Shown here: piece by piece, positions 1,528 to 43,810 of the stretch
Numbering within the stretch: position 1 is the first letter of the stretch
Layout of the letters: each line of letters begins with the position of its first letter
Source: Candidatus Anderseniibacteriota bacterium
GTDB taxonomy: Bacteria > Patescibacteriota > Andersenbacteria > UBA10190
Direction of reading: 5' to 3'
Assembly: GCA_040900375.1 (NCBI GenBank)
Contig: JBBDZC010000008.1
Location: 66,182 to 130,181, forward strand
DNA: 64,000 bases
The notes under the pieces: model-generated
Told to the model about the DNA's origin: nothing
Databases searched by the model: none
What the model saw: only the letters and a program-made list of their open reading frames with translations
Program-made: the position numbers and the translations under genes

Positions 1528-1547
1528 AGAGACACTTAAAAGAGCAT

Positions 1548-4667: not shown

Positions 4668-5831
4668 ATGTATATTAAAAACCTTGCCCTCACTAATTTT
4701 CGCAATTTTACCGATGTTGAAGAAATTACTTTTCCCGAGAATTCATTTTTAGTAGCGGCGGCGCCGAATGCTACAGGGAAGACAAATTTTCTGGAGGCGA
4801 TGACAATGTTATTGCGCGGGAAGTCATTTCGGGCCAGCGCCGAGGAGTGTGTCCGATGGGGAGAAGAGAGCTTCTTAGTTCGCGGCCAAGTGGTATCTCA
4901 AGCAGGCGAGGCATCAATTGCGGTCCGCTACTACCTACCTAGTAAAAAGATACGCATTGAAGAAAATAGCGTCCCCGCTTCACCAGTGACGTTTTTCGCG
5001 CACTACCCTTTTGTTCTTTTCTTGCCGGAAGATACTTTTTTGTTTAGCCGCGGCCCAGCGCTCCGTCGTAATTTTCTTAACCACATTTTATTAAGTGCTC
5101 CCACCTATCTGGCGGCACTCGTGCAATACCATCGTGCTTTGAAACAGCGCAATGCTCTCCTTAAAACAGCTCGATCATTTGCTGATGTTGAAGCGTGGAC
5201 ACAACTTCTCATTGAACATAGTGTGATGATCTGGAAACAGCGAGAGGGTTTTGTCAACTACCTTAATACGCATTTAAGCGAGGTATATACTTTATTTGCG
5301 GGGGAAGAATGTGAGCTTCAAGCACGTTTAGTTATGAGCAGCTCGAGTGAGCAGTACCCGGTTAATCTTCAGCAATCCTTTACTCAAGAACAGCGCTATG
5401 GCTACACAATTCATGGCCCACACCGCGATGATCTCGAGGTCACCAGTAAAGATCGTCCCCTCCGGGCAGCGTTGTCCCAAGGACAACTACGAAGCGCGGT
5501 GTTGGCGCTCAAGATTACAGCCTGGCGTTTTTTAAGTACGACGCTGCAAGAACAACCCCTACTCCTTCTGGATGAAGCTTTAAGTGAGTTAGACCATGAG
5601 CGCCAGGGCAGGCTACTTAAAAATTTACCTCCCGCCCAAACTCTCCTTACCTGCACGACTATTCCGCCGATTTTAGAGCAACGTGACAATGTTCATCTGC
5701 TTGATTTACGGTCAATTGCTGCACCGGAAGAAGATTTATCATGGCGGGATAGCCCAGAGCAGGCCGAGGGGCCGGGCGAATTATCTGTGGAAGATGAGGT
5801 AGCTGAAACAGTGTCAACGCCCGTATACTAA
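4668..5831 (+). CDS. recF: DNA replication and repair protein RecF
   Basis: The product has an N-terminal Walker A (APNATGKTNFLEA) and SMC-like signature regions. It carries an acidic C-terminal extension of about 40 aa. Confidence 0.9.
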   Translation: MYIKNLALTNFRNFTDVEEITFPENSFLVAAAPNATGKTNFLEAMTMLLRGKSFRASAEECVRWGEESFLVRGQVVSQAGEASIAVRYYLPSKKIRIEENSVPASPVTFFAHYPFVLFLPEDTFLFSRGPALRRNFLNHILLSAPTYLAALVQYHRALKQRNALLKTARSFADVEAWTQLLIEHSVMIWKQREGFVNYLNTHLSEVYTLFAGEECELQARLVMSSSSEQYPVNLQQSFTQEQRYGYTIHGPHRDDLEVTSKDRPLRAALSQGQLRSAVLALKITAWRFLSTTLQEQPLLLLDEALSELDHERQGRLLKNLPPAQTLLTCTTIPPILEQRDNVHLLDLRSIAAPEEDLSWRDSPEQAEGPGELSVEDEVAETVSTPVY

Positions 5832-5837
5832 ATAAGT

Positions 5838-6107
5838 ATGTTTCATCCTCTTCGGGCACTCTTTCGGCATACTAAGGTTGGCTGGGAAGAGACCGACATT
5901 AAATACTACATCGAGCGGTATTTTCAGAATCGGTTTAAGGCTGGTGTGCTCTACTGCGAAAAAGTTCACGAAGGGGTGGCGGTTATTCGGGTTAATTCTC
6001 CTCTTATCCAACAAGAAGTAGTGCTGTTAGAGTTTGAACTGGCTCGTGAATTACGGAAGCAGACTAACTATATTTTGCGACAATTAATTGTCTATACCTC
6101 ACGATAA
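5838..6107 (+). CDS. DUF721-family protein (the small gene usually found after recF)
   Basis: The 89 aa product has a DUF721-like C-terminal pattern (…GVAVIRVNSPLIQQEVVLLEFELARELRK…). Its position after recF fits. Confidence 0.6.
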   Translation: MFHPLRALFRHTKVGWEETDIKYYIERYFQNRFKAGVLYCEKVHEGVAVIRVNSPLIQQEVVLLEFELARELRKQTNYILRQLIVYTSR

Positions 6108-6131
6108 ATCTTTCCGCGGTCTTAAGGCGGT

Positions 6132-27476: not shown

Positions 27477-30269
27477 GTGGTTGATTATCTCGAACAAGCG
27501 ATCGCACAGTCCTGGCTCTTTATTGTTGCCTATTCTCCCCTCGGCATAATTGGGTTGTGGCGCTGGAGTGTCTGGTTGATTAAGAAAGGTTACGCTCGCC
27601 AGTATCAACCAGCTACGGGAGAATTTACGACCTCGGTTGCTGTCATTACTCCCGTTTACAACGAAAATCCCCAGCTCTTTCGTCGAGCGCTCGACTCGTG
27701 GCGCGCTAACAAGGTTAGTGAAATTATTGCGGTGATTGATTATACTGACACCGCCTGCATTGCGATATTTAAAGAATTTGCGCGCCGCTCCCCTGGGGCG
27801 CGCTTAGTGGTTACGGAAAAGCCAGGGAAACGGCCAGCGCTAGTGGAGGGAATGCAGATGGCACGCAGCGAAATTGTGGCCCTGGTTGATAGTGATACGG
27901 TATGGGATAGGGCGACAAAGCGGCAGGCACTGATTCCTTTCCGCGATCCTAAGATTGGCGGGGTCGCCACGCGGCAGAACGTGCTTAAGCCTAAAACTTT
28001 AGCGCAGCAGATCTTTAACGCTCAATTAAATCTTCGCTACCTGGAGGAGATGCCGTTTATGACGGCGCGCGGGGGGAGTGTCGTTACTTGTCTGTCGGGA
28101 CGCACCGCATTTTATCGCCGGGCGGCGGTCATACCCGTGCTTGATAACTTGCTCCACGAAACTTTTTGGGGTCAACCAGTGATTAGTGGTGATGATAAGT
28201 GCTTAACATACTTAGTCGAAGCCCAGGGGTGGAAAGTTGCTTTTCAACAAACGGCCCGTGTGTTTACCCCCGGCACGCCGACGGTGCGTAATTTTTTACG
28301 ACAGCGGTTGCGCTGGACCCGCAATAGTTGGCGGGCAGATTTACGCACGCTAACCCAAGCGTGGGTGTGGCGCCATCCTCGTTTTGCTTGGTACTTGCTT
28401 GATCGCGTCATCCAACCATTTGCCCAACTACTCTCACCACTCTTCTTTATTGTATCCATCCTGCTCGGGTTGGGGGTGCCCGCGGTGATTTTAGCTGGGT
28501 GGTGGCATGTGGGGCGGTTTTTACGGATGTATCCTCACTTGCGCCGACATCCCCGCGATATCGAATTGATCCCGCTGTACATTGTTCTTAATTTCTACTT
28601 GGCCTTGGTTAAAATTTACGCTCTCCTGACTTTGAATCGCCAGGGGTGGATTACGCGGTGGCACCACAGCCGCTTACCCCACGCGCCGCGGGCGCTGCAG
28701 CAGGTGGCAGCTTATGGACTGACAATGAGTATTGTCGGGACGCTGGGCTTAGGTGTTGGTCTCCACGAGCGCATGGTGTTGCAGGCTGCCCAGCACGATA
28801 CCTTGCAGCAAAGTTTGCGACCGCTGTCAGTGACTCCCGTATCGGCGCACGTGGTGGGGGGACTGTCCACCGGCGCGGCCAGCGGGGCAGTAATTGGGCG
28901 TCACGAAGTCCAGGCCGGGGACACGCTTAGTCGCCTAGCCCTGCACTATGGTCTTGAGCCCGAGGTCTTAGTGGCTCATAATGCCGTGCTCTTACCGAGC
29001 CGCAACTATATCGAACCTGGCTTGGTGATTAGTGTCCCCCCGGTCAATGCGCAGCCATCAGCTCCGGTGCGGTACACCACAACGTACCAAGATCAGGGAC
29101 CGCTACGCATCACGTATAATGCCGGTACTCACACCATTGAGGTGCGGGGCCGGGGTCGTCAGATAACATTAGAGGATATTCGCCAGGCCGTGGGTGAGCG
29201 TTACCTGCGTGAAGTCTCACCCCAGCAGTGGTACTTGACGGCCAATCTTACCTTGAAAGCGGGCGTGAGTTTACGACTTGAGCAACAGGAAGTAGCGTGG
29301 CTTAAACTTAAGAGTGAGCCGCATGATTTTGTGGTTATTACAGCCGAGAGCGGCCACATGTTGATCACCGGTACGAAACTTACTTCCTGGGACGAGACGC
29401 GCCAGAATGTGGACGAGACGCTAGCCGATGGCCGCAGCTATATCGTGGCGCGGGGGCACGCGCGGTTTGATATTTTTTCAGCGGAGCTAGCGTACTTAGG
29501 CTATCCGCCAGAGCCGCAGGGACCGGCGGGGACCACAGGGGTAACATGGAGACTCACCGACCAAGAAGAAGCTTTACTGACTGGGGAAGTACGTAATAGC
29601 CGCTTTCACCATAACTACCACGGGGCGCACATCGCGGGCGGGACGGGTATGGGCTGGTACGATAACCAATTTTATGACAACACCCAAGCCGGTTTAGCTC
29701 TCGATCTTGGCACGAGTCATGCTGTGATTGAGCGCAATACTCTGTCGCGTAATGGGGAACAGGGCATCCTTCTCCGGGCCCAGTCTCGCTATAACCAGAT
29801 CGTGAATAATGAAGTGGCGTACCACCGCGACGGCATTGCGGTGAATGCTGCAGTTGATAACATAATTTCCGGCAATCATCTGCGTGCTAATCAGCGCGGA
29901 TTACATATCGGCCAGCGTGTCCAGCGAACGCTTGTTACTAGTAATCACTTTCACAGTAATGAACACTCGGGGATCTCGGCAGCGGCGACCGCCGGGCATA
30001 ATCGCATTCAGGACAACCTTTTCGAGAAGAACCGTCTCGCCTTGTACTTGGCGGCTTCGAATAATGAGATTAGTGGCAATACCGTGCACGCCAACCAGAT
30101 TGGGATGTACTTACAGTCGCCGGCGAGTAATAATCGCTTATATCAAAACAAAATTGCCGGTAACGAAAGTTACGGGCTTTACATTAAAGCCTTAGCGCAC
30201 GAGATCAATTATGCAGGAAACAATGCCATCAAGGGTAATCGCATCAATGCGGTGGCCGCGGTTCTTTGA
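27477..30269 (+). CDS. Processive GT2 polysaccharide synthase fused to a LysM domain and a C-terminal right-handed beta-helix (C5-epimerase/lyase-like) domain
   Basis: The GT2 part has DSDTVWD and QRLRW (Q-x-x-R-W), with TM helices on either side. A LysM segment follows (VQAGDTLSRLALHYGLEPEVLVAHN). The C-terminus carries repeated NxxxN/G beta-helix units (RFHHNYHGAHIAGG…). Confidence 0.8.
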   Translation: MVDYLEQAIAQSWLFIVAYSPLGIIGLWRWSVWLIKKGYARQYQPATGEFTTSVAVITPVYNENPQLFRRALDSWRANKVSEIIAVIDYTDTACIAIFKEFARRSPGARLVVTEKPGKRPALVEGMQMARSEIVALVDSDTVWDRATKRQALIPFRDPKIGGVATRQNVLKPKTLAQQIFNAQLNLRYLEEMPFMTARGGSVVTCLSGRTAFYRRAAVIPVLDNLLHETFWGQPVISGDDKCLTYLVEAQGWKVAFQQTARVFTPGTPTVRNFLRQRLRWTRNSWRADLRTLTQAWVWRHPRFAWYLLDRVIQPFAQLLSPLFFIVSILLGLGVPAVILAGWWHVGRFLRMYPHLRRHPRDIELIPLYIVLNFYLALVKIYALLTLNRQGWITRWHHSRLPHAPRALQQVAAYGLTMSIVGTLGLGVGLHERMVLQAAQHDTLQQSLRPLSVTPVSAHVVGGLSTGAASGAVIGRHEVQAGDTLSRLALHYGLEPEVLVAHNAVLLPSRNYIEPGLVISVPPVNAQPSAPVRYTTTYQDQGPLRITYNAGTHTIEVRGRGRQITLEDIRQAVGERYLREVSPQQWYLTANLTLKAGVSLRLEQQEVAWLKLKSEPHDFVVITAESGHMLITGTKLTSWDETRQNVDETLADGRSYIVARGHARFDIFSAELAYLGYPPEPQGPAGTTGVTWRLTDQEEALLTGEVRNSRFHHNYHGAHIAGGTGMGWYDNQFYDNTQAGLALDLGTSHAVIERNTLSRNGEQGILLRAQSRYNQIVNNEVAYHRDGIAVNAAVDNIISGNHLRANQRGLHIGQRVQRTLVTSNHFHSNEHSGISAAATAGHNRIQDNLFEKNRLALYLAASNNEISGNTVHANQIGMYLQSPASNNRLYQNKIAGNESYGLYIKALAHEINYAGNNAIKGNRINAVAAVL

Positions 30270-30336
30270 AGAGATTATGACAAATATAGTATTGCCTTTA
30301 TGGTACCGCTACGGTTTACTAAAAAGTAGACAACGT

Positions 30337-31941
30337 ATGCGATCAACTATTTTCCTCGCCAAGGCTCGTGGGGGATTGATGTCTCGGTTAGGGCTTGTAG
30401 CCCTGGTCTTGTTCGTCATCGGGGGATTGGGGGTATTTTCTGCCTCGGCTGCCGCCACGCCTTGTACGAGCACTGATATTCGTTGGGCGAGTTCATCCAA
30501 TACCATCTACATTTTTGGGGAAAACGTTGTGTGTACCCTAATGGACATTGACCAACTGGTACCCAAGGCGAATCTCGCCCTAGTTAATCCGACCGAGCAT
30601 ATCTGGTTTCTGGGTACTAACTTAGTGGTGCAACAAGGGGCCACGTTGCAACTCCATGGCACCAGCATTGGTGGCGATGTGGACTATTTGCGACTCAAGA
30701 GTAACAACACCTCTACTACCCATAGCATTGTCTGGATCCGGGCTGATTGGGGAATAATTGATATCGACACGACCAAAATTACTTCTTGGGATGAGGCCAC
30801 GGGCGAAACCGATAAAGAATATGAACAATATCGGCGATCATTTATCCAAGCCCGGTCACGGTTGGCGCTCGATGGTGTGACCCCTAATGAATCGCACATG
30901 AATATTAAGAATAGTGAAATTGGGTACTTGGGCTACGCGGGGGCGGAAGCTTACGGCCTATCATGGAAGGTCAATGGGAAAGAAGAAAATCTGTTTGATT
31001 TGGTCAATATCTATGGCGAGGTGATTAATAATCGCATTCACCACAACTATTTTGGCGCTTACACCTACGGCGCCGAGGGCATGCACTGGCAAGGCAATGA
31101 ACTTGATAATAACGTGGTCTATGGTCTCGACCCCCACGACAACTCCGATAACTTAGTGATTGAAGATAACGACGCTCACCACAATGGTTCGCACGGTATT
31201 ATCTGCTCGCGTTTCTGTGACCACTTAATCATTCGCAATAACGTGGCGCGGGATAACGGCGGCAACGGCATCATGCTGCATCGGCTCACCGACTTTTCTT
31301 TAATAGAAGGGAATGAAACCTTTAACAACAGTGATTCGGGCATCGCCGTTTTTGACAGCCACCACAACACGATTCGCGGCAATAGAAGCTATGGCAATGC
31401 CAAGGGCATACGCTTCAGCGTGGGCAGTTCGCATAACCTAGTAACCGAAAACCAGATTCACGATAACGATTCTTATGGCCTTTACTTCTATCAGGGCAGT
31501 GACGCCCCCACGAATTCAGGCGACAGCGGGCGGCCCCACGATAATCAGTTCATTAATAATGAAGTCTCGGGCAGCGGCATCTATGGTCTTAAAATGAAGG
31601 AGACTGACGATAACCTCTTTCAAGATAATCACTTTACGGATAACGGCCGATCTCTCTTAATTGAGTTGAGTAGCCACAATCGTTTCGAGAACAATACGAT
31701 TGAAGACAACAGCGAAACGGGGATCGTCTTAAGCGGGGCTTCCGACCACGAACTTGTTGGCAACCTCATTGAACACAACGGTGACGTGGGTATCTATCTG
31801 AAGAAGGAAAGTGACAATGCCGTCATTACCAATAATACTATCCGCCAACACAATAAGTACGGGATTCGGGTAGTGGATAGCGAGGGGGTGACAATCGAGG
31901 ACAACATCTTTGAAGATAATGGTCAGGATATCAGTTCGTAG
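30337..31941 (+). CDS. Secreted right-handed parallel beta-helix protein (AlgG/NosD-like)
   Basis: The product has a signal peptide or TM segment and many beta-helix repeats (…HHNYFGAYTYGAEGMHWQGNELDNNVVYGLDPHDNSDNLVIEDNDAHHNGSHGI…). I chose the start at Met 30337 because the ORF track start at 30211 overlaps the upstream gene. Confidence 0.65.
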   Translation: MRSTIFLAKARGGLMSRLGLVALVLFVIGGLGVFSASAAATPCTSTDIRWASSSNTIYIFGENVVCTLMDIDQLVPKANLALVNPTEHIWFLGTNLVVQQGATLQLHGTSIGGDVDYLRLKSNNTSTTHSIVWIRADWGIIDIDTTKITSWDEATGETDKEYEQYRRSFIQARSRLALDGVTPNESHMNIKNSEIGYLGYAGAEAYGLSWKVNGKEENLFDLVNIYGEVINNRIHHNYFGAYTYGAEGMHWQGNELDNNVVYGLDPHDNSDNLVIEDNDAHHNGSHGIICSRFCDHLIIRNNVARDNGGNGIMLHRLTDFSLIEGNETFNNSDSGIAVFDSHHNTIRGNRSYGNAKGIRFSVGSSHNLVTENQIHDNDSYGLYFYQGSDAPTNSGDSGRPHDNQFINNEVSGSGIYGLKMKETDDNLFQDNHFTDNGRSLLIELSSHNRFENNTIEDNSETGIVLSGASDHELVGNLIEHNGDVGIYLKKESDNAVITNNTIRQHNKYGIRVVDSEGVTIEDNIFEDNGQDISS

Positions 31942-32011
31942 ACTCGGCGCACGACTGCAGACATTTAGCACTCGCCGTATCTCTCCCCCGCTCGCGTGGG
32001 GAGTAATTTTA

Positions 32012-33202
32012 ATGAGCAGCGTGGGGCTGGGTTTCCTGGCTTATAGCGCCGGGCTTTTTCTGGCGTCGCCACTTTTGCTCTCGCTCGCGCACTCGCGCAC
32101 ACTGGAGTCTCTGCCGGCGAGTGTCATACTCTCCACAGAAATAGTAGGGGAAGTACTCCTTGAAGGATCACCGCCCGTGGCGGATATCCAGACGCCCGCT
32201 TTGTTGCCGCCCAGTCTATTGCCAAGTCCGGTGCTTGCCGCCACTATCTTGGTGAGTCCCACTGGTGTGGATGCGCCTGACCGGGGGATAGGTGGTCGTC
32301 CGTTGCGGACTGTATCGCAGGCTCTACAGCGCGCCCGGCCAGGAGATGTGATCGAGGTGCAAGCGGGCGAGTACCAGGAACACATAGTGACCACGACTGC
32401 GGGGCAAGCGCAGCAGCCAATTACGCTCCGGGCGCAGGGTCGCGTGGTTTTCAAGGGTGATCAAAAGCACGGGCGGCTGATGGAGGTACGGCACGACTAT
32501 TACGATATTTCGGGCTTTGAATTTACGAACGCCGATATTCTCCTGTGGCTTGAGGGTGCCAGGTACGCCAAGATTACCAATAACTATTTTCATGAAGCCC
32601 AGGGTGAATGTGTGCGCTTCAAATATCACTCGACGCATAATCTCTTTGCGCATAACCGCGTAGAATTTTGCGGGCGAGAGGATTTTGGCGGCGGCGGTGA
32701 TGGTAAAAATGGCGAGGGCCTCTACCTCGGTACTGCTCCCGAGCAGCTTGATCGCAACCCAACGCCCGAGACTGACCAGACCAACGCGAACACTATTCGC
32801 GCTAATACGTTTAATACCCGGGGGAACGAGTGTGTTGATATTAAAGAAGGAGCGAGCGAGAATGTTGTGGAGTTTAATGACTGTACGGGCCAACGCGATT
32901 CCGAGAGCGGCGGGTTCGACGCCCGCGGCAGCGGTAATATTTTTCGCTACAACACCAGCTACGGTAACCTCGGGGCCGGGATCCGGTTCGGCGGCGATGA
33001 GGAAAGTGATGGTATTAACAACCAGGCCTACGGCAACGAGCTCTACCAGAATGAAAATGTGGCCATAAAAGTAATGCGCTTACCCCAGGGGCTTATTTGT
33101 GGTAACAAAGTTTCTGCAAATGAGAGCGGGTTTTCTAATAACAAGAGTATCCAGAATCCAGCTTGTCCTTTTCCGCTCTCGCCACCAGGCCGGCCTTCTT
33201 AA
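32012..33202 (+). CDS. Secreted pectin-lyase-fold (DUF1565-like) beta-helix protein
   Basis: A signal peptide is followed by RTVSQALQRARPGDVIEVQAGEY, a typical N-terminus for lyase or hydrolase beta-helices. More beta-helix repeats follow. I chose the start at 32012. Confidence 0.6.
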   Translation: MSSVGLGFLAYSAGLFLASPLLLSLAHSRTLESLPASVILSTEIVGEVLLEGSPPVADIQTPALLPPSLLPSPVLAATILVSPTGVDAPDRGIGGRPLRTVSQALQRARPGDVIEVQAGEYQEHIVTTTAGQAQQPITLRAQGRVVFKGDQKHGRLMEVRHDYYDISGFEFTNADILLWLEGARYAKITNNYFHEAQGECVRFKYHSTHNLFAHNRVEFCGREDFGGGGDGKNGEGLYLGTAPEQLDRNPTPETDQTNANTIRANTFNTRGNECVDIKEGASENVVEFNDCTGQRDSESGGFDARGSGNIFRYNTSYGNLGAGIRFGGDEESDGINNQAYGNELYQNENVAIKVMRLPQGLICGNKVSANESGFSNNKSIQNPACPFPLSPPGRPS

Positions 33203-33726: not shown

Positions 33727-34827
33727 TTACTCAAGGCAGGCGTTAAATTGTTGGACTTGCTGATTGAGGCGTGTCATTAAAGCTTTGGCGGCCTCAATCT
33801 TACTATTTAAAATTGTTACCTGCTCGTTATAGATGCGCTGTTGTTCTTGTAATACTCTCACCGCCTGATTATAGGCAGTTTGTTGCTGCCGCGCTTGATC
33901 AACTAACGCTTCGCCTTCGGCTTGGAGCCGTTGGCCTTCATCCCAATACGGCTGGGCTTGCTCGCGGGAGCCAGTTTCTTGGTAGATTTTATTCCCTTCC
34001 TCTATTTTAGCGTTACCGGCGGCAATCGTTGCCTCGGCTCGGGCGATCAACGCTTCAATTGCAGTCAATTCCTGGGCGAGGCTGTCTTCTTGGCTCTCAA
34101 TTTCTTGCCGCGCCTGGTCGAGGGTGGCACTTAAGGCGGCGGTTTCTGCTTCAATTTGTTCAAGTTGGGTGCGCAGACTTTCATCGGGTAGTGGACAGGT
34201 GCCGAGCGGCAGCGCGAAGGTTTGCACTGCAAGCCACGTGCGCTGGCCCTCGAAGGTGCCGGGAGCGGCGGCAATGCCAATCTCACTAAATTTCTCGTGC
34301 AAAATGTTCTCGCGGTGGCCAGGGCTATCCATCCAGGCTTGGACGAGGGCAACGTCGCTGCCAAAATTGCCGAGCGCCAGATTTTCACCGACGCGAATGT
34401 ACTCATAGCCTACGCCCTCGACCCAATCAGCCGGGCCTTTGCCGTCAGGCCCGACATGTTCGAAATATTGCTGGGCAAACATGTCCTGCAGCTTTTGCGC
34501 GGCGGCGCGATTGAGCAGCGTGTTGGCCGTGAGCGGCGCCTGACCGGCGACTTGTCGGTGTGCATTGGTTTCCTGCAGGATACCGCCCTGGGTGAGCGTA
34601 CCAGCGTGTGGCTGATCAGGGCCCCGCAGGGGTGGGGGCGTTATGATGCGGCGGGGGTCGTCAAGCAATTCGTCGAGGGAGGGCAGCGCCGCTAAGTCAT
34701 CGAGCACTACCCGCTGTTGGGGTGAGGACTGATACCATGTTATGCCGAGGATACTCGCCAAGATGATCAGGGCGATAACTATAACTGCTGCCAGCGGCGT
34801 AATGTATCCCCTTGAAGTCATCAACAT
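33727..34827 (-). CDS. Membrane-anchored CAP/SCP/PR1-like domain protein with a long C-terminal coiled coil
   Basis: The product has an N-terminal TM segment and a CAP motif (…VQAWMDSPGHRENILHEKFSEIGIA…). The C-terminal 170 aa or so are Q/E/A-rich heptad repeats. Confidence 0.7.
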   Translation of the reverse strand: MLMTSRGYITPLAAVIVIALIILASILGITWYQSSPQQRVVLDDLAALPSLDELLDDPRRIITPPPLRGPDQPHAGTLTQGGILQETNAHRQVAGQAPLTANTLLNRAAAQKLQDMFAQQYFEHVGPDGKGPADWVEGVGYEYIRVGENLALGNFGSDVALVQAWMDSPGHRENILHEKFSEIGIAAAPGTFEGQRTWLAVQTFALPLGTCPLPDESLRTQLEQIEAETAALSATLDQARQEIESQEDSLAQELTAIEALIARAEATIAAGNAKIEEGNKIYQETGSREQAQPYWDEGQRLQAEGEALVDQARQQQTAYNQAVRVLQEQQRIYNEQVTILNSKIEAAKALMTRLNQQVQQFNACLE

Positions 34828-34828
34828 G

Positions 34829-34860
34829 TTTTCTAGTATACGTCTTTTCTAGTATACGTC
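34829..34860. repeat. Perfect 16-bp tandem duplication (TTTTCTAGTATACGTC, two copies) immediately upstream of the CAP gene start
   Basis: Both copies were read directly from the sequence. On the coding (minus) strand each copy carries a TATACT -10-like hexamer. Confidence 0.6.
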
Positions 34861-34927: not shown

Positions 34928-34953
34928 CCATATTTCGATATATCGAAATATGG
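34928..34953. promoter_or_regulatory. Perfect 26-bp palindrome CCATATTTCGATA|TATCGAAATATGG (candidate operator)
   Basis: I verified exact dyad symmetry. It lies between the SipW-like gene and the CAP gene. Confidence 0.4.
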
Positions 34954-35005: not shown

Positions 35006-36088
35006 TCAGGGTGCGGTGTTGTGGAGATCAACTGAAATATTGATATCTCCAGAAGTTACCGTGCCGCCGGTGGTGTTGTCTTCCGCCGTGTTGCCACCAG
35101 TGGTGGCGTCAACAGTAATAGTGTTGCTGATTTGTGTCTCTGTCGTGCTGGTTATATCGCACTCACTGCTAACTTCGGTATTGTTTTCATTCGTCGAGCC
35201 AGGGCCGGTATTTTCATTGCGCTGCTCAATATTTACATCGAGATCACAGTTTGCAGCGGGTAAGGGAGAAGGTGAAGGACTGACGCTGGGCTCTGGAGAG
35301 GGACTGGGAGAAACTGAAGGCGATGGCTCGGTTGAAGGCGTAGGTGAGGGAGAGGGGAAAATAGCGGACGTGGAAAATTGACTGTTAGTTATAGCTGCGG
35401 AGTCTGAAAAAACTGCTAACGTGGCAGGGACAGTCACCAAAAGAACGGCAAAGGCTGTCGCTCCTTTAAGTAATAAGCGCGGTTGGCGCAGCTGTCGCCA
35501 AGCCTGCTTCATAGCGGCGAGTTCTTGCAGGATAACTAGCGTTGCCGGCAGCAGAATGGCAAGCGTAAAACCGGTTTTAGTGTGGAGCCAGCGCAGTAAG
35601 TATCCTAGATACGGAATAGACATATCGGCTGCGCCGATCACGAAGCCGTGCGGCACTAGTTTAGAATCAGCAACATTATTAGCGTCACCTTGAGTGCGAT
35701 AAGCTAGGCCTTGCTTCGTGGTGACATTCTCAATAATGCGGTGCGTGGTAGTGCCTTTGGCCGAACGAAATGTAATGATGTCGCCGGGGGCATAGGCCAG
35801 CTGCTCTTTCACGGTAATGACGGCACCGGTGGCGATGACGGGCTCCATGCTGCCAGAGCGCACGACGAAGAGTTCGGTAGTACGAACGGTATGCCATATC
35901 CCGGCGCTGGCGGTAATTACTGCTACGAATAGGAAAAATGTTACTACTTGCCTGACGCGGGATTGAGAGGTAGTAGGCAAGCGAATTTGGCTGTGATGTT
36001 GCTGCAACGGGCGAAACTCTGCGTAAGTAATCACGCGTTCGGAAGTTGGCCGTATTTGTGGTGGTTGAATGCTATCCATGAGGGACAA
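35006..36088 (-). CDS. SipW/Sec11-type (archaeal-type) signal peptidase I with a C-terminal substrate-like extension
   Basis: The N-terminus has a TM segment and the SGSMEP catalytic motif, then a second TM. A signal-peptide-like segment follows (MKQAWRQLRQPRLLLKGATAFAVLLVTVPATLAVFSDSAAITNSQFST), then a Pro/Ser linker and one copy of the TGGN…NTTGG…SGD repeat. Confidence 0.75.
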   Translation of the reverse strand: MSLMDSIQPPQIRPTSERVITYAEFRPLQQHHSQIRLPTTSQSRVRQVVTFFLFVAVITASAGIWHTVRTTELFVVRSGSMEPVIATGAVITVKEQLAYAPGDIITFRSAKGTTTHRIIENVTTKQGLAYRTQGDANNVADSKLVPHGFVIGAADMSIPYLGYLLRWLHTKTGFTLAILLPATLVILQELAAMKQAWRQLRQPRLLLKGATAFAVLLVTVPATLAVFSDSAAITNSQFSTSAIFPSPSPTPSTEPSPSVSPSPSPEPSVSPSPSPLPAANCDLDVNIEQRNENTGPGSTNENNTEVSSECDITSTTETQISNTITVDATTGGNTAEDNTTGGTVTSGDINISVDLHNTAP

Positions 36089-36156: not shown

Positions 36157-36825
36157 TCAAGGGAGGGGTGTTGGTTCGGGTGTTGCTTCAGGTGTGCTCT
36201 GTGTGCCAGTAAACTCGGCATCGAAGTTGACACTTTTATTAGTAGCTTCGCTATTAATATCTAGGGTAGCTGTCATGGTACATCTGGCTTCATCGGAGCC
36301 TTCTCCATCAACTGTGCCGTCGTTCGGCCCAAGTGTGCCAAGGCCACCAGTTGGAATACCGCCATCATTTTCCCAGTCAGACAATGGCTTGGCGTCAACT
36401 GATCCATCTCCCAGAGTCTCACCATCATCACCGACATCGCATGAGAATCCAACGGAAAGATCTTCTTTGATGTCAGTGGAGTTGGCAGGAAGTGTCTGGA
36501 TGTTCTCAATAAGAACGCTAAGATCAAGGCTGACCTCACTTTCAGCGCTGCTATTATTTTTTAGCCAGAATTCAAATTCTGAAGTTTGACCCGGCAGCAT
36601 GTTTTCAACTACAGGACCCTGAATACTATTAAGGTATGCTACAGGGCTATTGCCTTCCTGTGCAATCAGAAGATCTACGTTACCGGTGGCAAATGTGCTG
36701 TTTTCAAGCGTGGCAGTGTCAGAGAAGAGTGCACTTGAGACACCGGCAACTGCTGCAAGTACCGCAAGGATAACAGCGCCGCTTACAAGCAAGCGCATAG
36801 TAGGATGAATATTTGTTAAGGTCAT
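36157..36825 (-). CDS. TasA/camelysin-family (peptidase M73-like) secreted protein with a SipW-cognate signal peptide
   Basis: After the N-terminal hydrophobic region comes …SSALFSDTATLENSTFATGNVDL…, the motif characteristic of SipW substrates. A GGAGGTG ribosome-binding site lies 8 nt upstream. Confidence 0.7.
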   Translation of the reverse strand: MTLTNIHPTMRLLVSGAVILAVLAAVAGVSSALFSDTATLENSTFATGNVDLLIAQEGNSPVAYLNSIQGPVVENMLPGQTSEFEFWLKNNSSAESEVSLDLSVLIENIQTLPANSTDIKEDLSVGFSCDVGDDGETLGDGSVDAKPLSDWENDGGIPTGGLGTLGPNDGTVDGEGSDEARCTMTATLDINSEATNKSVNFDAEFTGTQSTPEATPEPTPLP

Positions 36826-37183
36826 ATCATGTCACCTCCTCTCAAGAAAGTTCTCAAGATCGAGGGTGGCGCACAGGGTGGCAATGGAAAGTGGTGAAAG
36901 AGTTCGGCAGTGTGTTTCACAAAAATAAAAGAAGGATCAGTCACGAGATCCCCCTCATGCCCTCCTGCACTTCTAGTTACTTATTGACTAGCGTATCGCA
37001 TTGCCACAAAAGCACAATGTTTTTGCGTGATGTTGGAGCCTGGCGGAGGGAAGATTCTTTCACTGTTTACGGGGAGAAATTGGTTGTCAGTTCTGGAAAA
37101 GCGGTGTTACACTGATACCACGGGGGCGAACAGGGTGTAATTTAACAAAAGTCGACGTTCATCTGGTAATTGACTGCGAGGAG

Positions 37184-37735: not shown

Positions 37736-38362
37736 ATGTCGTTCAAGAATGTAGTGCAATTGTTGTTGCTCGGAACTGTGACGCTTAGCCTGGTTGCAGT
37801 TATCACCCCGAGCGCGGCGGCTTCGCATATTGATTGGGAACAACGTCGCGCACAGCGGGAAGCGGAGCGGGAGGCGCGGCGCCTGGCGCGCGAGAACCCG
37901 AGCCCGACGTGCCGGTGTTCAGCCAGCTTGGGCTTGGCGCGGCCGAGTCTGCAGTTTACTAGTGGCGGGGGCTTAACTTTGACGCCCCGGGTTGATGTCA
38001 GTATTCGCACACGCGGTGATCACGAGGCGCCACCGTGGGTGGCCGAGTTGGCATATAGCGGCACGACCGAGTATGAGTCGGATGATGTGAGTGTGCCGGC
38101 GGGAGTGGCATTTAGCGGGACACAGCAGGTAGCGGCCGGATCATGCGGTGATACGTATACTTTCCGCGGACTGGCGTTACCAGATGTCAGCCTCACTGGC
38201 TTGATCCGCTCCCTGGTGGGTGTAGATCAAGAACTTGAAGGAACGGTGCGGCTGCACGCGACGCTCAATAGCTGCGAGCTGGATGAGGAGCAGCGTCAGT
38301 TTAGCTTCCGGGTACAGGAGTTTGGGAATCTGAAGATAGGCGGGTGGCGGTCGGCGCGGTAA
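37736..38362 (+). CDS. Hypothetical secreted protein
   Basis: The product has a signal peptide (…LVAVITPSAAAS). I recognise no domain. I chose it over the overlapping minus-strand ORF. Confidence 0.45.
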   Translation: MSFKNVVQLLLLGTVTLSLVAVITPSAAASHIDWEQRRAQREAEREARRLARENPSPTCRCSASLGLARPSLQFTSGGGLTLTPRVDVSIRTRGDHEAPPWVAELAYSGTTEYESDDVSVPAGVAFSGTQQVAAGSCGDTYTFRGLALPDVSLTGLIRSLVGVDQELEGTVRLHATLNSCELDEEQRQFSFRVQEFGNLKIGGWRSAR

Positions 38363-38413: not shown

Positions 38414-38632
38414 CCATCCTTGCAGGGGGAAGAAGTTGTGGTACGAAGGATACAGGTCGAAAACGTGTTGATTTAGGGGGAGCCAACCTAAGAGGACACG
38501 ATTTCTAAGGAGGGGGACCATTTGATCTTATTGATTACCAAGATCGGTGGAAGAGAATCGTGTTTTTTGTTTATCCGCTTTCACACACAAAACTCGCATG
38601 CACCATGAAGCTATGAGAGGAGGTGAGTACAG

Positions 38633-39748
38633 ATGAAGAATACATTTCGCGCACTCTTTGGCGTATCTGCACTCGCACTCTTACTAGTTGCCGCTCCTGT
38701 GTTGGCAGCAGAAGTAGATGTGACTGCCGAGAACGTCATGACGGGAGCTGATTCTGACAACAACAACGACACTGATGTTGACAACGACTTAGATGTTAAT
38801 GTTGACAACGTTGGCAATGTGAGCAACTCTGCCAGCGCGGCCGTAACCACGGGCAACAATGAGCAGAACGAAAACACCGAAGGCGGTGACGTGGACTCTG
38901 GCGCGGTTGATGCCTCCACTGACTGGGAGAGCATCGTCAATGCCGGGGCGGCTTTGTTGGACAATGGGGATGGCCTAGAAGTGTCTGCTGATTTCAGCAA
39001 CGACACAACGGGCGCTGATTCCGACAACGATAATGATCTCGATGTAGATCATGATGTTGATCTGGACTTACGCAACATCGCTAATATTCTGAACTACTTA
39101 GCATTGTCTGCCAACACTGGCGACAACGAGCAGAACAAGAATACAATGGGCGGCGAGCTCACGACGGGTGATGTAACTGTTGATTCAATGATTGCCAATT
39201 TGGCAAACAATGGCGCCGGTTACGCTAGCCTTGGCACCACCCAGGTGGATGTCAGCGGCAGCAATCACCTCACGGGAGCTGATTCTAACAACAACAACGA
39301 TGTTGATGTTGACAACGACTATGATCTTGATGTTGACAATACTGCCAACCTCACGACAAGCGTTGTGATTAATGCCCATACGGGCGGCAACGAGCAGAAT
39401 CGCAACACTCAGGGCGGCTCTATGACTACGGGCAATGTGGAAGTTTCAACGAAAGTTGAAAACTCTGCTAACAACAATTCCAGCATTGGGATTGGTGGCT
39501 CAAGTCTCGCCGTCACGGTAGAGGCTTCCAATGACACAACCGGTGCTGATTCCGACAATGATAATGATGTAGACGTTGATAACAACGTTGACATCGATGT
39601 CGACAATACCGCTAATGTCTCGAATAATCTGACCGTAAGCGCCAACACTGGCGACAACGAGCAGAACAAGAACACCCAAGGCGGTGGTGTTGAGACTGGT
39701 TCAGTCTCCATCAACTTTGAGGCGTTCAACGAAGTCAACAGCAATTAA
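38633..39748 (+). CDS. Secreted Asp/Asn-rich protein made of four tandem repeats of about 90 aa (unclassified repeat family)
   Basis: The product has a signal peptide (…APVLA|AE). Each repeat reads TGADSDN(D/N)ND-(D/V)x-acidic DxDxD run …NTG(D/G)NEQN(K/R)NT(Q/M)GG…TG(D/N)V. It has a strong ribosome-binding site. Confidence 0.7.
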   Translation: MKNTFRALFGVSALALLLVAAPVLAAEVDVTAENVMTGADSDNNNDTDVDNDLDVNVDNVGNVSNSASAAVTTGNNEQNENTEGGDVDSGAVDASTDWESIVNAGAALLDNGDGLEVSADFSNDTTGADSDNDNDLDVDHDVDLDLRNIANILNYLALSANTGDNEQNKNTMGGELTTGDVTVDSMIANLANNGAGYASLGTTQVDVSGSNHLTGADSNNNNDVDVDNDYDLDVDNTANLTTSVVINAHTGGNEQNRNTQGGSMTTGNVEVSTKVENSANNNSSIGIGGSSLAVTVEASNDTTGADSDNDNDVDVDNNVDIDVDNTANVSNNLTVSANTGDNEQNKNTQGGGVETGSVSINFEAFNEVNSN

Positions 39749-39829: not shown

Positions 39830-42769
39830 ATGAACAATCGTTTGCGCCGCAGTCTGACAAGGATTAAGAAGAGCCTGGTACTCGGAGTAATAGTCTGGTT
39901 GAGCGTGGTAACCCCAGCGGTGACTTTTGCGCAAAGCGTGGATGCAACGGAGGAAACCGCCAGTGCGACTGAATGTACCGGGGCCGGTTGCGGCCAGGGC
40001 AGTGATCAGGGAGTGGATCAGGGAAGTGGCCAGGGTGGCCTGTCGGCCGAGGATCTCGGAGCTGATGAAACGGGTGAATTGCCGGAAGGGGTCATCGATA
40101 CCCGCCAGGGCGCCAGCCAGGGCTCGACTAATGGCGTCACGGCAGCCAACACGAACACTGGTACGAATTCGACAAACACAGCCGGCGTGACAGCGACTAA
40201 TAGTACCACGACTGGTATTGCGAACACGGCTCTGGATACCACGAATGCCGCCGCGACGGGAACAACTGGCGGCAACACGAGTAGTAACAACACGGGGGGC
40301 ACCGGGATTATCACGGGTTCAGCCGGGATTGGTGTTACCCAAGTTAAAAATGATAATACCGCCACGGTGAACGGCACCGCTGGTTTACAGGTAGAAGGCC
40401 ACAACGGCAATTACGTGGGTGATTTGAACTTAGGTTTTGGGGCGGGGACAGCTAATTTATCAGGCGGCAGTTCAATCCGCGCGGTCAATGAGGCGACGGG
40501 GGCGGGCTCAACTAATAACGTGGGCATTGCCACGCGGACAGAAGAGCTCAATGAGGTGCAAAACGATGGGCGGATTGATAATATCTTGGATTTAGCGGCG
40601 ATTACGGGACAAAATGTGGCGAATAAGAATACGGGGGATGCAGTGATCACCACGGGTGATGCAAATGTGGCAGCGACTCTTGTTAATTTGTTAAATACAA
40701 CGGTGATTAATGGCGACTTGTGGATTACGGTGGCAGACATTTTTGGCAACCTCGAAGGCAACATTAATCTGCCTGACTTCTCGAGCTGGGTCGCGGCGCA
40801 TCTCCTGGGGATTGAGGTGGCGAATGAAAACACTGGGACAAACTCAACCAATGCGATTGCGGTTGATGTGTCAGATCGCGCGACCACGACGATTGATAAT
40901 GACGCTGATATTACCACGACGGTAAATGCGGAGGCTGTTACTGGACAAAACGAAACGATGGCTAATACCGGCGGAGCCGAGGTTACCACGGGCGATGCCC
41001 AAGTTTCAGCGGGTGCTATTTCGATCGCCAATACCACCGTAGAAGGCGGCAACTGGGGTTTGGTGATTGTCAACGCGCTCAATCGCTGGCTCGGGTTTTT
41101 AGTGGGCGATAGCGGCGAAGTCCGCGCTTTATCGCAAGACGAGACGTTGCATGAGATTGCCGCGCGTAATACTAATACGGGGGCGGATTCTGATAACACG
41201 ATTGGGGTGGAGGTAGAACGAGAACGTACCACGACGGTTGCCAACGACGCGGTGATTAATAACGAGATCAACGCGCAGGCGATTACTGGCCAGAATGAGG
41301 CGAATAAGAATACGGGTGGGGCGCAGATTGCTACCGGGGATGCCAATGTGCAGGCCACGACGGTGAATATTGCTAATACGACCGTTAAGGACGGCTCACT
41401 CTTTATTGCCGTCGTTAACATTTTTGGCGACTGGCTTGGTGATCTCTTCTATGGCGGCAGCGCTCTGGGCACGACCGCGACTGGGCCCGCGAGTGTGGTG
41501 GTGGCCGAGGCGCGCAGTAGCGAGACGGGGGCGGACTCGGCTAATACCATTGATATCAACTACGATCGCCACCAGGAGACAACCATTGATAATGAAGCTG
41601 ATTTGGCCACGACCCTGAATGCCACGATTGATACAGGCAGCAACCGGGCCAGCCGTAACACCGGCGGGGCGCTGATTGATACGGGGGATGGGGCCCTGGC
41701 GCTGCATGCACGCTCGGCCGCCAACTTGACGGGTATCGCGGGCGCGGCGGGCGTGGGTATCGCGATCCAGGGTTTAAACGAGACGACGGGCGCTAATTCC
41801 CAGAATCGGATCCGGGCGCACATTAATGATGAGCATATTATGACAATTAATAACGACGCTAATGTGAGTACTGTCATTGGTGATCGTCAGGTGCCGGCGA
41901 TGGTTAATACGGGCAATAATGTCGCGAACCAGAATACTCTCGGGGCGATGATTATGACCGGTGATATTGCGGCCGAGGTGGCGATCCATAACCTGGTCAA
42001 TCAAGTCTTGGTTGCTTTAACCGGGCAGGGCATTGTTGTTGACGCCGATTTTGCCAATCGTCTTACGGGGGCGTTGTCGACGAATAGTAATGAGCTGACG
42101 GTTGAACAACAGGCACTGCTGGCAGTGCTCAATCGCGGCCTCGTTGATAATATTATTAACTTGCTCCTGAATACCGGTGGCAATACGGCGAATGAAAACA
42201 CCGGCGGCGGGGCAATTTCAACAGGTGACATTTGTGTTGAGGGTGTGGTGAAAAATGTGGTTAATGACGTGAGCGCCACGGGCGTGGGCGGAGCCTCGCT
42301 TGATCTTGATCAGGAGGCTCATCTGCACACCGCTGCCCAGCTCGGTGCGACCACCGGAAACAACGAGGCTCATCGCAATACGGGCAAGCAGCAGGTGACT
42401 GATGCGGAAGGTATCTGTCCCAAGCTCGCTGTGGTAGTCACCCCGTCACCATCGCCATCACCAACTCCCGCCCCGGAAGAAGGTCAAGGCGGCGGTGAGG
42501 AAGCGGGCGCAGAGGCACATGACGAGGAAGAAGCCCCGGCAGCCGCGGGTGGGGCCGCGGAAGCAGAACCAAGAGTTGCCGCAGCGGTAGAGATGCCACC
42601 CGTAGCCGAGCGGATCTTGCGTCGTTTCCCGGTGGCGGGCGGAGAACAAGCCGCCATGATTTTGCAAGGCAAAAAGCGTCTACCGTGGCCTTTCTTTGTG
42701 GCCATGAGCCTGCTGTTAGTGGGTACAGCGTGGCGCTTTGATATTCGTGCCCGTGCGGCACAGCGGTAG
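39830..42769 (+). CDS. Large secreted surface protein (979 aa) with about 10 copies of the same ~75 aa repeat, a Pro/Ser linker and a C-terminal hydrophobic anchor
   Basis: The product has a signal peptide (…AVTFA|QS). Repeats recur as …A(I/V)TGQNExxxNTGGAx(I/V)xTGDAxVxAxxVNxxNTTV…. The C-terminus reads …TPSPSPSPTPAPEE… then an acidic Ala-rich stretch, WPFFVAMSLLLVGTAW and RFDIRARAAQR. Confidence 0.75.
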   Translation: MNNRLRRSLTRIKKSLVLGVIVWLSVVTPAVTFAQSVDATEETASATECTGAGCGQGSDQGVDQGSGQGGLSAEDLGADETGELPEGVIDTRQGASQGSTNGVTAANTNTGTNSTNTAGVTATNSTTTGIANTALDTTNAAATGTTGGNTSSNNTGGTGIITGSAGIGVTQVKNDNTATVNGTAGLQVEGHNGNYVGDLNLGFGAGTANLSGGSSIRAVNEATGAGSTNNVGIATRTEELNEVQNDGRIDNILDLAAITGQNVANKNTGDAVITTGDANVAATLVNLLNTTVINGDLWITVADIFGNLEGNINLPDFSSWVAAHLLGIEVANENTGTNSTNAIAVDVSDRATTTIDNDADITTTVNAEAVTGQNETMANTGGAEVTTGDAQVSAGAISIANTTVEGGNWGLVIVNALNRWLGFLVGDSGEVRALSQDETLHEIAARNTNTGADSDNTIGVEVERERTTTVANDAVINNEINAQAITGQNEANKNTGGAQIATGDANVQATTVNIANTTVKDGSLFIAVVNIFGDWLGDLFYGGSALGTTATGPASVVVAEARSSETGADSANTIDINYDRHQETTIDNEADLATTLNATIDTGSNRASRNTGGALIDTGDGALALHARSAANLTGIAGAAGVGIAIQGLNETTGANSQNRIRAHINDEHIMTINNDANVSTVIGDRQVPAMVNTGNNVANQNTLGAMIMTGDIAAEVAIHNLVNQVLVALTGQGIVVDADFANRLTGALSTNSNELTVEQQALLAVLNRGLVDNIINLLLNTGGNTANENTGGGAISTGDICVEGVVKNVVNDVSATGVGGASLDLDQEAHLHTAAQLGATTGNNEAHRNTGKQQVTDAEGICPKLAVVVTPSPSPSPTPAPEEGQGGGEEAGAEAHDEEEAPAAAGGAAEAEPRVAAAVEMPPVAERILRRFPVAGGEQAAMILQGKKRLPWPFFVAMSLLLVGTAWRFDIRARAAQR

Positions 42770-42904: not shown

Positions 42905-43810
42905 ATGCCGACTGCTCTACCGAAAAAATACCTTGCCCTTGGGGCCGTGCTACTGGTGGCGGTGGCGGGACTCGTCATTGCCAGTTTTATGGTGGCCCAG
43001 CGGTTCAATAAGCAAGCCCTGGCGCAAGAAGCCTGGCTGAAATTGACGGCAGCGCCGAGCTACCATGCCCGCGCGGAATTACTACTCAATCTTCCGGTGC
43101 GCCTGCAAGGGCGCGAGCGCCCACTCAACCAGATTACACTCCGTACCGAAGGCGATGTTGTCCGCGATACCACCGGTGTACCAGAATTCACGGGCACGCT
43201 CTTTACCGAGGCTCGCGGACGAGGGACCGTGTTGTTTGCTGATGGGCAGCTTCGGCTACTGGCCGAGGCTGTTGCCTTTCGTTTGGAGAATTTGCCGGTG
43301 CTGGTTAACCCTACGGGGAGCTTAGTTGAGAAGTGGACTTATGTAGATAGCCGGTTGCTGACAACACGTAACGGCCCCGAGATTCGCCAAGTTTTGAGCG
43401 ACGTTTTTAGCCAGCTGGCGTATCAGGGTAAAGAGCAGGATAATGGCGGGGCGATCTGGCGCTACGCGGGGAGCTTAAGAGCGGAAGATGAAGCCCGGCT
43501 GATCGCTACCTTGCAGCACCAAGTTTCGGGCAATCATGGCTACCATATTATTGCTCGTCTCTTACAAGCCTACGATGTGCAATCGCTGGTGGTTGATGTG
43601 GCGACCGAGACACAGGAGGTGCGGACAATAACGGTGACGTTTGTGATGCCAGAAAGTGCCTCATCGGCGAGTGCGCTCGCGGTCTTGAATTTAGCTTTTA
43701 GTGATTACGGGAAAGCAGTCGTGATTGATCGCCCCGTCAAGCAGTTGACGGTCCGTCCGGAAATTTTTTCTCGCATTGTGGGTACGGGCGAAATTTTGCC
43801 TCAACCATAA
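42905..43810 (+). CDS. Hypothetical membrane-anchored protein
   Basis: The product has an N-terminal TM segment (LALGAVLLVAVAGLVIASF). I recognise no domain. Confidence 0.45.
   Translation: MPTALPKKYLALGAVLLVAVAGLVIASFMVAQRFNKQALAQEAWLKLTAAPSYHARAELLLNLPVRLQGRERPLNQITLRTEGDVVRDTTGVPEFTGTLFTEARGRGTVLFADGQLRLLAEAVAFRLENLPVLVNPTGSLVEKWTYVDSRLLTTRNGPEIRQVLSDVFSQLAYQGKEQDNGGAIWRYAGSLRAEDEARLIATLQHQVSGNHGYHIIARLLQAYDVQSLVVDVATETQEVRTITVTFVMPESASSASALAVLNLAFSDYGKAVVIDRPVKQLTVRPEIFSRIVGTGEILPQP

Follow-up and report, generated by a model that had tools for sequence, protein, structure and literature searches.

Signal peptidases are usually portrayed as enzymes whose pre-protein substrates are separate molecules. 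Can such an enzyme also carry a substrate of its own in the same chain? This question is raised by an open reading frame (ORF) on the minus strand of a 64,000-nucleotide stretch of contig JBBDZC010000008.1 from Candidatus Anderseniibacteriota bacterium, the whole of which is referred to here as the window. An original prediction had proposed that the ORF at 35006..36088 (stop codon included) joins a SipW/Sec11-type signal peptidase to a complete pre-protein-like segment. Our analysis bears out this architecture, and we consider it virtually certain that the fusion is real. The reading that we favour, with a probability of about 0.5, is that the peptidase cleaves off its own tail and thereby sets free a TapA-like initiator or adaptor for a fibre of the TasA-like protein encoded next to it.

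A SipW/Sec11-like peptidase with a predicted internal signal

The fusion ORF encodes 360 amino acids when read from the TTG at 36088 and 357 when read from the ATG at 36079. An identical protein in NCBI starts at the latter codon, three codons later, and bears the title 'MAG: signal peptidase I [Candidatus Andersenbacteria bacterium]' (MAG, metagenome-assembled genome). Residues 47-189 (35522..35950) form the endoplasmic reticulum (ER)/archaeal-type signal peptidase I domain, for which TIGR02228 (sigpep_I_arch) gave 85.8 bits (cutoff 51.85). Membership in the Bacillus SipW equivalog NF046067 was ruled out by its score of 102.8 bits, which lies under the cutoff of 190; the protein is SipW-like, not at the level of an orthologue. 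The catalytic residues Ser80 (SGSMEP; codon 35849-35851), His116 (THR; 35741-35743), Asp135 (GDAN; 35684-35686) and Asp141 (35666-35668) are invariant in alignments of 17, 111 and 150 relatives. They comprise a serine, a histidine in place of lysine and two aspartates in Sec11-like spacing, and they align with the SGSMEP / HR / GD.N..D motifs of human SEC11A, so that the serine and histidine on which the original prediction hinged are both intact.

Two transmembrane segments (TM) frame this domain: TM1 (residues 48-68; 35885..35947), the N-terminal membrane anchor of the peptidase, and TM2 (residues 172-192; 35513..35575), which corresponds to the C-terminal TM typical of SipW/Sec11 and is predicted to return the chain to the cytoplasm. 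Hydropathy places them at 42-58 and 168-185 in the 357-residue numbering, that is, at about 45-61 and 171-188 in the 360-residue numbering used here. An AlphaFold2 model computed from the 17-sequence alignment has helices at 42-70 and 171-201, and the alignment with SEC11A takes in the C-terminal TM of the human protein. The model is confident for residues 40-200 (predicted local distance difference test, pLDDT, >90), and the closest folds to this part are SEC11C and SEC11A (7P2P, 7P2Q); 4N31 (third-best), LexA and UmuD are further structural neighbours. Because TIGR02228 scores above cutoff, the catalytic residues are invariant, the SEC11A motifs align and the fold matches SEC11C/A, the N-terminal 192 residues are predicted to be an active-looking ER/archaeal-type (SipW/Sec11-like) signal peptidase.

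Behind TM2 the chain continues with a putative SipW-type signal (residues 193-244), which thus sits internally and not at the N-terminus of a separate pre-protein. A basic, presumably cytoplasmic loop (residues 193-204, MKQAWRQLRQPR; 35477..35512) would serve as its n-region, in line with an enrichment of Lys and Arg at -18..-30 across the family. The h- and c-region follows (residues 205-225, LLLKGATAFAVLLVTVPATLA; 35414..35476) and conforms to the family-wide -1/-3 pattern. This short hydrophobic segment ends PATLA|VFSDSAAITNSQF, and the predicted cleavage site after Ala225 (P-A-T-L-A | V-F-S-D), between 35414 and 35413, has Ala at -1, Thr at -3 and Pro at -5. Read as a whole, the site comprises the n-region KQAWRQLRQPR, the core ATAFAVLLVTV and P-A-T-L-A | VFSDSAAITNSQFSTSA. 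The predicted mature product would begin with a TasA/TapA-type strand-like N-terminus (residues 226-244, VFSDSAAITNSQFSTSAIF; 35357..35413), an assignment based on TIGR04088 and on its likeness to the neighbouring protein. A Pro/Ser-rich linker of 33 residues (245-277; 35258..35356) leads to a C-terminal module of 83 residues (278-360; 35009..35257) with conserved cysteines C281 and C310 and one copy of a repeat of ~75 residues (NxNTGxGSTN...TGGN...NTxGGxxxxGD). The latter matches the repeats of two neighbouring proteins of 371 and 979 residues with 35-40% identity (pairwise E 1e-6 to 1e-8). All parts named in the original prediction, from Met193 (codon 35510-35512) to the linker and the repeat copy, were located as described; the C-terminal product, put there at about 110 residues, had to be corrected to about 135 (residues 226-360).

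Among the NCBIfam models, TIGR04088 is the only one to match the isolated internal segment. Signal motifs of the xF(S/T)D...N.F.A type occur in the window in this ORF and the adjoining TasA-like ORF only. A Pfam search of the window fusion gave no match to the Peptidase_M73 jelly-roll (PF12389). Matches of the fusion protein to TonB and ClfB were rejected as low-complexity Pro/Ser similarity far under cutoff. From the positive-inside rule, we infer the topology N-in, TM1, catalytic domain out, TM2, basic loop in, third TM, remainder out. Because of this three-TM topology, the cleavage site and the active site would lie on the same face of the membrane.

A profile search over 1.84 billion cluster representatives yielded 4,819 matches at E<=1e-30. 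The best 150 of them, each from a separate 50%-identity cluster, are almost all 250-900 residues long and almost all share one arrangement, in which the peptidase and TM2 are followed by a basic loop, a third hydrophobic segment, an A-x-(F/Y)-(F/S)-(S/D) motif, a Pro/Thr/Ser linker and another domain. Relatives of 241-563 residues with the parts in the same order had been retrieved in the first homology search, and 17 homologues align from end to end without a stop. Identities within the family amount to only 25-45%. Its named members stem from Andersenbacteria, Microgenomates, Shapirobacteria, Gottesmanbacteria, Dojkabacteria and the 'Patescibacteria group', and one from a MAG labelled Clostridia (P0015); every named source except one is thus a lineage of the Candidate Phyla Radiation (CPR), and all named members carry only the title 'signal peptidase I'.

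Since the architecture is conserved family-wide, it is not an assembly artefact. An error that joined a sipW gene to a small downstream gene, or a nested start at Met193 as the original prediction had entertained, could be invoked, given that Met193 is present and that about 8 of the 13 closest relatives have a Met at that position. Against this stand the uninterrupted frame in more than 150 independent clusters from many samples, the occurrence of Ile, Leu or Val in the wider family where the window protein has Met193, and the loop that joins TM2 to the third segment, which varies from 12 to >100 residues without a stop. The nested-gene reading was rejected, as the n-region has no conserved Met and no Shine-Dalgarno (SD) sequence precedes Met193, in contrast to the strong ones of neighbouring genes. 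An artefact or a pair of genes is scarcely credible in the face of these data.

The predicted cleavage site and the TasA-like neighbour

To avoid circularity, the cleavage site was located throughout the family with a hidden Markov model built from positions +2..+19 only, and the upstream residues were read afterwards. A site was predicted in 148 of 221 long members. In these, position -1 is Ala in 79% and Ser in 16% (95% together), position -3 is T/S/A/G/C in 93%, position -2 is bulky or variable, and Pro and Gly are enriched at -5. Upstream of the site lies an h-region of about 11-14 residues, preceded by an enrichment of Lys and Arg. The mature start is characterised by Phe/Tyr at +2, Asp at +4 (86%), Asn at +11 (91%), Phe at +13 (66%), Ala-Ala at +15/+16 and Phe at +19, after which the linker begins. 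That about 93-96% of the -3/-1 positions are small and -2 is bulky in a family that is only distantly related is difficult to account for unless cleavage by a signal peptidase is under selection. The internal segments of four of ten members tested (P0018, P0014, P0041 and P0044) score above the TIGR04088 cutoff (22.6-28.2 bits). Taken together, the segment bears every sequence hallmark of a SipW-type pre-protein.

What follows the linker is variable. In a Pfam census of 111 long members, a lamin-tail domain (LTD) was found in 67, RTX in two, and LysM, fn3, dockerin, CBM_4_9 and Big_13 in one each; the cargo of the remaining members, the window protein included, is without Pfam annotation. A repeat unit as in the window (detected by regular expression) occurs in about 28 of the 240 family members collected, and LTD in about 122. 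Such interchangeable cargo is as expected downstream of an export signal. In P0305 (649 residues; L013 6001-7950), a Peptidase_M73/TasA-like domain (26.8 bits, residues 207-265) lies right behind the internal signal and is followed by LTD; by its domain content this protein is literally SipW fused to a TasA-like substrate. Another TasA-like gene is found just upstream of it. In most members, what is left of the TasA-like protein is confined to the signal, some ~17-19 residues of the mature start and a linker. Two further members are of note with regard to their C-terminal parts. P0048 (512 residues, from a metagenome), which is closely related to the window protein, carries dockerin-like GDTDHDGDVDNVD repeats in its Pro/Ser linker, ahead of the repeat unit. 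At L006 7815-8768 (Parcubacteria group bacterium Gr01-1014_38) the C-terminal module seems to be frameshifted or truncated, and repeat-like sequence goes on in another frame; the change of frame could be decay or an assembly error.

Directly upstream of the fusion (36157..36825, minus strand) lies a gene with a strong SD sequence for a TasA/camelysin-like protein of 222 residues, the presumed major fibre subunit. In agreement with the original prediction, this protein has a SipW-type signal (..VSSA|LFSDTATLENSTFATG..) and matches both Peptidase_M73 (PF12389, 26.6 bits) and TIGR04088 (19.7 bits) above cutoff. In loci assembled from contigs that encode family members, a TasA-like gene with a SipW-type signal immediately precedes the fusion not only in the window but also in 11 others (L001, L002, L003/4 with two copies, L005, L006, L007, L009, L010 with two copies, L011, L012 and L013), and Peptidase_M73 was detected in most of these genes.

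We compared positions +1..+17 of the fused segment with the mature N-terminus of the neighbouring TasA-like protein in 11 loci. The segment shares 6.9 of 17 identities with its own neighbour and 3.5 of 17 with non-cognate neighbours; the corresponding BLOSUM scores are 31.4 and 11.4. In 20,000 permutations, none reached the observed identity (p<5e-5) and one reached the observed BLOSUM score. For the pair in the window, 8 of 17 positions are identical between the strand and the mature N-terminus of its neighbour. Variants characteristic of a lineage are common to both partners, such as AFISNSVTI.. / AFTTNQVTI.. in L002, LLNTNTV.. / LLQTNNV.. in L007 and ..SN.V.L..NNLV in both proteins of L012. 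Since the fused strand tracks the mature N-terminus of the neighbour, the evidence points more strongly to the TasA-like protein than to the repeat proteins as its partner.

In Bacillus subtilis, the donor strand with which a TasA subunit completes its successor is made up of the first 11 mature residues (28-38; F29, I32, F39), and the N-terminus of TapA resembles this strand and is predicted to complement TasA (PMC9674648). For biofilm formation, residues 44-57 of TapA are enough; TapA and SipW are similarly scarce, and the translation of their genes is coupled (PMC10151520). The conserved F(+2) and F(+13) of the fused segment lie at or beside the donor-strand residues F29 (+2) and F39 (+12) of TasA. 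In the case of TasA homologues from archaea, the first strand has been proposed to come from a minor protein that has distal domains, and TasA homologues have been noted in Patescibacteria (PMC9245690).

The locus resembles the tapA-sipW-tasA operon of B. subtilis in that an ER-type Ser/His signal peptidase is encoded beside a TasA/camelysin-like protein and that signal and N-terminus of the substrates follow the pattern A|xF(S/N)D...N.F.A in both. The fused tail is, moreover, reminiscent of TapA, a minor accessory protein for which the first ~14 mature residues, mimicking a donor strand, are sufficient and in which a separate domain follows. In B. subtilis, however, strand, linker and module are not covalently attached behind TM2 of the peptidase via an internal signal, as they are here. 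Also, the gene order in the window is tasA-like, then sipW::accessory, the organism is a CPR bacterium, and the distal module is a solenoid repeat unit or, in relatives, LTD, without homology to the immunoglobulin domain of TapA. The fused product would thus follow the logic of TapA without being homologous to it, a resemblance in function only.

More distant parallels concern single aspects of the fusion. Sec11, the catalytic subunit of the signal peptidase complex (MEROPS S26B; TIGR02228), has the same SGSMEP / HR / GD.N..D motifs in the same spacing and both the N- and the C-terminal TM, but it lacks a C-terminal extension and works in a multi-subunit complex. No Sec11/SipW member with a substrate of its own is known to us. 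SipA/LepA of Streptococcus pyogenes, the third-best structural match (4N31), is a signal-peptidase fold recruited to pilus assembly; in contrast to the window protein, which keeps all catalytic residues, SipA has none and acts as a chaperone. LexA, UmuD and lambda cI (S24, clan SF) likewise combine a protease fold and its cleavage site in one polypeptide, yet these are cytoplasmic regulatory proteins with a Ser/Lys dyad, are not membrane-bound and have no signal-peptide substrate. In the bundling pili of Pyrobaculum, the TasA-fold subunit AbpA polymerises by donor-strand complementation, and AbpB, which has distal domains, is the proposed donor of the first strand; the Abp operon has neither a dedicated peptidase nor a fusion (PMC9245690).

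Processing, function and competing explanations

According to the explanation that we favour, the precursor would insert into the membrane as a polytopic protein with three TMs (TM1, the catalytic domain outside the membrane, TM2 and the third segment). The basic loop and the third hydrophobic segment would act as an internal SipW-type signal and re-export the rest of the chain, whereupon the peptidase domain of the same or of a neighbouring molecule would cut after Ala225 (PATLA|VFSDSAA). This cut would leave an enzyme of 225 residues with the spent signal still tethered, and release a product of ~135 residues that consists of a TasA-like strand of 17-19 residues, a Pro/Ser spacer and one unit of the predicted beta-solenoid repeat. 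By analogy with TapA, donor-strand complementation could bring the strand into the acceptor groove of a TasA-like subunit, where it would start or cap the fibre; the distal module would connect this end of the fibre with the layer of repeat proteins. Most relatives have LTD as their distal module, and in these the fibre end would be joined to a different partner. The fusion would also limit the initiator to a low dose of one per enzyme and place it at the site where the subunit matures. Such a low dose fits the weak or absent SD sequence of the fusion as opposed to the strong one of the TasA-like gene: the sequence GAGAGGAGGTGA was found ahead of the TasA-like gene (36826-36865) and of the gene for the 371-residue protein (38593-38632), and not upstream of the fusion or the gene for the 979-residue protein. 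This contrast is consistent with a division into major and minor components.

Taken separately, the steps of this proposal are not equally secure. That the fused tail is cleaved appears likely to us from the conservation at the site, and that the product acts like TapA is a tentative analogy with odds a little short of even. A peptidase in which each molecule cuts its own copy of the substrate in cis upon membrane insertion, releasing a donor-strand initiator where the TasA-like protein matures, is a more doubtful variant. If it held true, fibre initiation would be coupled stoichiometrically and spatially to the peptidase, and the spent signal would be the third TM of the enzyme. The protein would then be the first S26 signal peptidase known with an intramolecular substrate, and a 'Rosetta-stone' fusion indicating an ancient partnership of SipW and TapA that is widespread among CPR bacteria.

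Several observations weigh against the favoured explanation. The claim of cleavage rests on sequence. For the isolated internal segment of the window protein, TIGR04088 gave 13.6-14.6 bits (E 0.03-0.06), under the cutoff of 19; the hallmarks of the SipW-cognate motif of the original prediction (basic n-region, h-region, small residues at -3 and -1) are present. The motif threshold was missed by 73 of the 221 long members. Most residues after 205 have a pLDDT <50 in the AlphaFold2 model, which gives no reading on whether the site docks in the active site, and neither the whole protein nor its C-terminal half has TapA/YqxM among its Pfam or NCBIfam matches. The co-variation test covers 11 loci only, its statistics ignore phylogeny, and the cognate neighbour ranked first in only 3 of the 11. 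Moreover, the co-variation could equally be explained by recognition through one shared peptidase instead of strand complementation. The released product has no evident mechanism of retention. The tethered spent signal might hinder turnover and compete with incoming substrates, and to our knowledge there is no precedent for a signal peptide left tethered to its peptidase.

Another reading is that the tail is not cut at all. If the third segment were a permanent anchor, stalk and module would stay on the peptidase as a surface domain that might serve to position the enzyme in the envelope or to fasten the fibre or repeat layer at its base to the membrane, and the FSD motif would be a leftover from the gene that was fused or a docking strand close to the membrane. 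A TM followed by a long Pro/Ser spacer and a distal domain is a common stalk-and-head layout, the LTD, LysM, CBM and dockerin cargoes resemble binding or anchoring modules, and donor-strand insertion would presumably not strictly require a free N-terminus; the case for cleavage is, besides, drawn from sequence patterns. These very patterns speak against a permanent anchor, as do the short h-region with its Pro/Gly breaker, which is as in cleavable signals, and the invariant catalytic residues, and we regard uncleaved display as unlikely. A still different relation between the two halves would be that of a tethered pseudo-substrate, in which the signal and the FSD segment fill the substrate groove until a TasA-like pre-protein or an envelope cue displaces them, with the distal domain as a sensor. 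Self-cleaving or self-occupying regulation does exist in the same protease clan, to which the structural neighbours LexA and UmuD belong, and B. subtilis SipW reportedly has a second, non-catalytic function in its C-terminal region, a finding attributed to Terra et al. 2012. Nevertheless, this idea has no specific support, and a loop of such variable length and the interchangeable cargo speak against a finely tuned intramolecular switch, so that we consider it very improbable.

A different partner for the released module was put forward in the original prediction, according to which it primes the assembly of the repeat proteins. A single repeat would stack on the ends of the 371- and 979-residue solenoids in the manner of CsgB for CsgA, and the TasA-like strand would serve as an export and cleavage signal only. 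The parallel with curli nucleation is wholly inferential, as there is no sequence homology and the secretion route is another one. In favour of such priming, the module is one full repeat of the neighbours, these are predicted beta-solenoids with curli- and RTX-like structural matches, and the six-gene cluster is syntenic in L002 and its core in L007. It is also compatible with the donor-strand explanation and with the clade of the window protein. It is not general, though, given how much rarer the repeat unit is than LTD among the family members. L005 carries an LTD-type fusion beside genes for 375 and 1049 residues, whose likeness to the repeat proteins is one of size and order only, and L001 has a repeat-type fusion without any repeat protein within its contig of roughly 9 kb. 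Furthermore, conservation runs 17-19 residues past the site, beyond the need of the peptidase, and tracks the TasA-like neighbour. On balance, priming of the repeat proteins seems quite improbable as the primary role of the module.

Whichever role applies, the peptidase half and the SipW/TasA/TapA system are known, and the enzyme-substrate fusion is a new form of that system. The original prediction had called the fusion undescribed, and we found no description of a SipW or other signal peptidase fused to a substrate, to LTD or to a CPR fibre system in the full-text literature, the coverage of which was incomplete, so that an earlier description is possible. A large, conserved family with enzyme and cleavable substrate in one chain would organise protein export in a new way, in that the signal is internal and each enzyme may have to cleave itself once. 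It would also lend independent genetic support to the still-debated idea that a minor protein donating a short N-terminal strand starts TasA-type fibres, and to the notion that SipW and this initiator act in close partnership. Bacteria of the CPR are tiny episymbionts, most of them uncultured, and little is known of their cell-surface biology. The present data point to a surface-fibre system in these organisms that comprises a TasA-like subunit, a peptidase-initiator fusion, solenoid repeat proteins and possibly sortase anchoring. With regard to annotation, the second half of the protein is hidden in thousands of database entries titled only "signal peptidase I".

The surrounding gene cluster

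On the plus strand, four further genes belong to the cluster. The 371-residue protein (38633..39748) is secreted, has four repeat copies and is predicted to be an all-beta solenoid. The 979-residue protein (39830..42769) has at least seven repeat copies, an N-terminal signal and, at its C-terminus (42626-42769), a sorting-like FPVAG, a hydrophobic stretch predicted to be a TM and a basic tail. Neither repeat protein has a match to a Pfam or NCBIfam model, and their named relatives, from Andersen-, Berkel-, Staskawicz- and Levybacteria and a 'Patescibacteria group' MAG, are all titled 'hypothetical protein'. For this repeat family AlphaFold2 predicts an all-beta solenoid, with SufD, RTX and curli as the closest PDB folds. 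The other two genes encode a secreted protein of 208 residues (37736..38362) and a membrane-anchored protein of 301 residues (42905..43810), each conserved, without a family match and with an N-terminal signal/anchor.

L002 repeats the same six genes, i.e. those for the TasA-like protein, the fusion and the 208-, 371-, 979- and 301-residue proteins; the orthologues of the 208- and 301-residue proteins lie at 5487-6167 and 104-1033 of that locus. Its orthologue of the 979-residue protein (1030-4092) ends with LAPTG, a TM and a basic tail, and a sortase gene is found nearby. Together with the C-terminus of the window protein, this suggests that the solenoid protein may be anchored to the CPR cell wall by a sortase. 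L007 has the core of the cluster, with the TasA-like gene, the fusion and a CAP gene adjacent, and the gene set of L005 is comparable in size and order. In the window, the gene downstream of the fusion (33727..34827, minus strand) encodes a CAP/SCP-domain protein of 366 residues; a CAP gene also adjoins the fusion in L005 and L007 and lies near it in L003.

Two sequence features lie ahead of the CAP-domain gene. In the gap of 178 bp between the stop of the fusion and the start of this gene, a perfect palindrome of 24 bp (CATATTTCGATATATCGAAATATG) is located at 34929-34952, which could be an operator or a terminator stem. A tandem direct repeat of 2 x 16 nt at 34829-34860 (minus-strand sequence GACGTATACTAGAAAA) stops a single base short of the ATG of the CAP gene and looks like a regulatory site. 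In the LTD-type loci, an RTX (HemolysinCabind) protein of ~330-370 residues is encoded directly downstream of the fusion (L005 7072-8055, L009 2651-3634, L010 7038-8153). The start of its gene often overlaps the stop of the fusion, and the protein may be another component of the system. Finally, the upstream region 27477-33202 of the window harbours a polysaccharide-type cluster with a protein of 930 residues that combines GT2, LysM and NosD/beta-helix domains, and with two more right-handed beta-helix proteins. A UDP-glucose dehydrogenase-like gene precedes these, and the cluster probably serves envelope glycan synthesis beside the fibre cluster.

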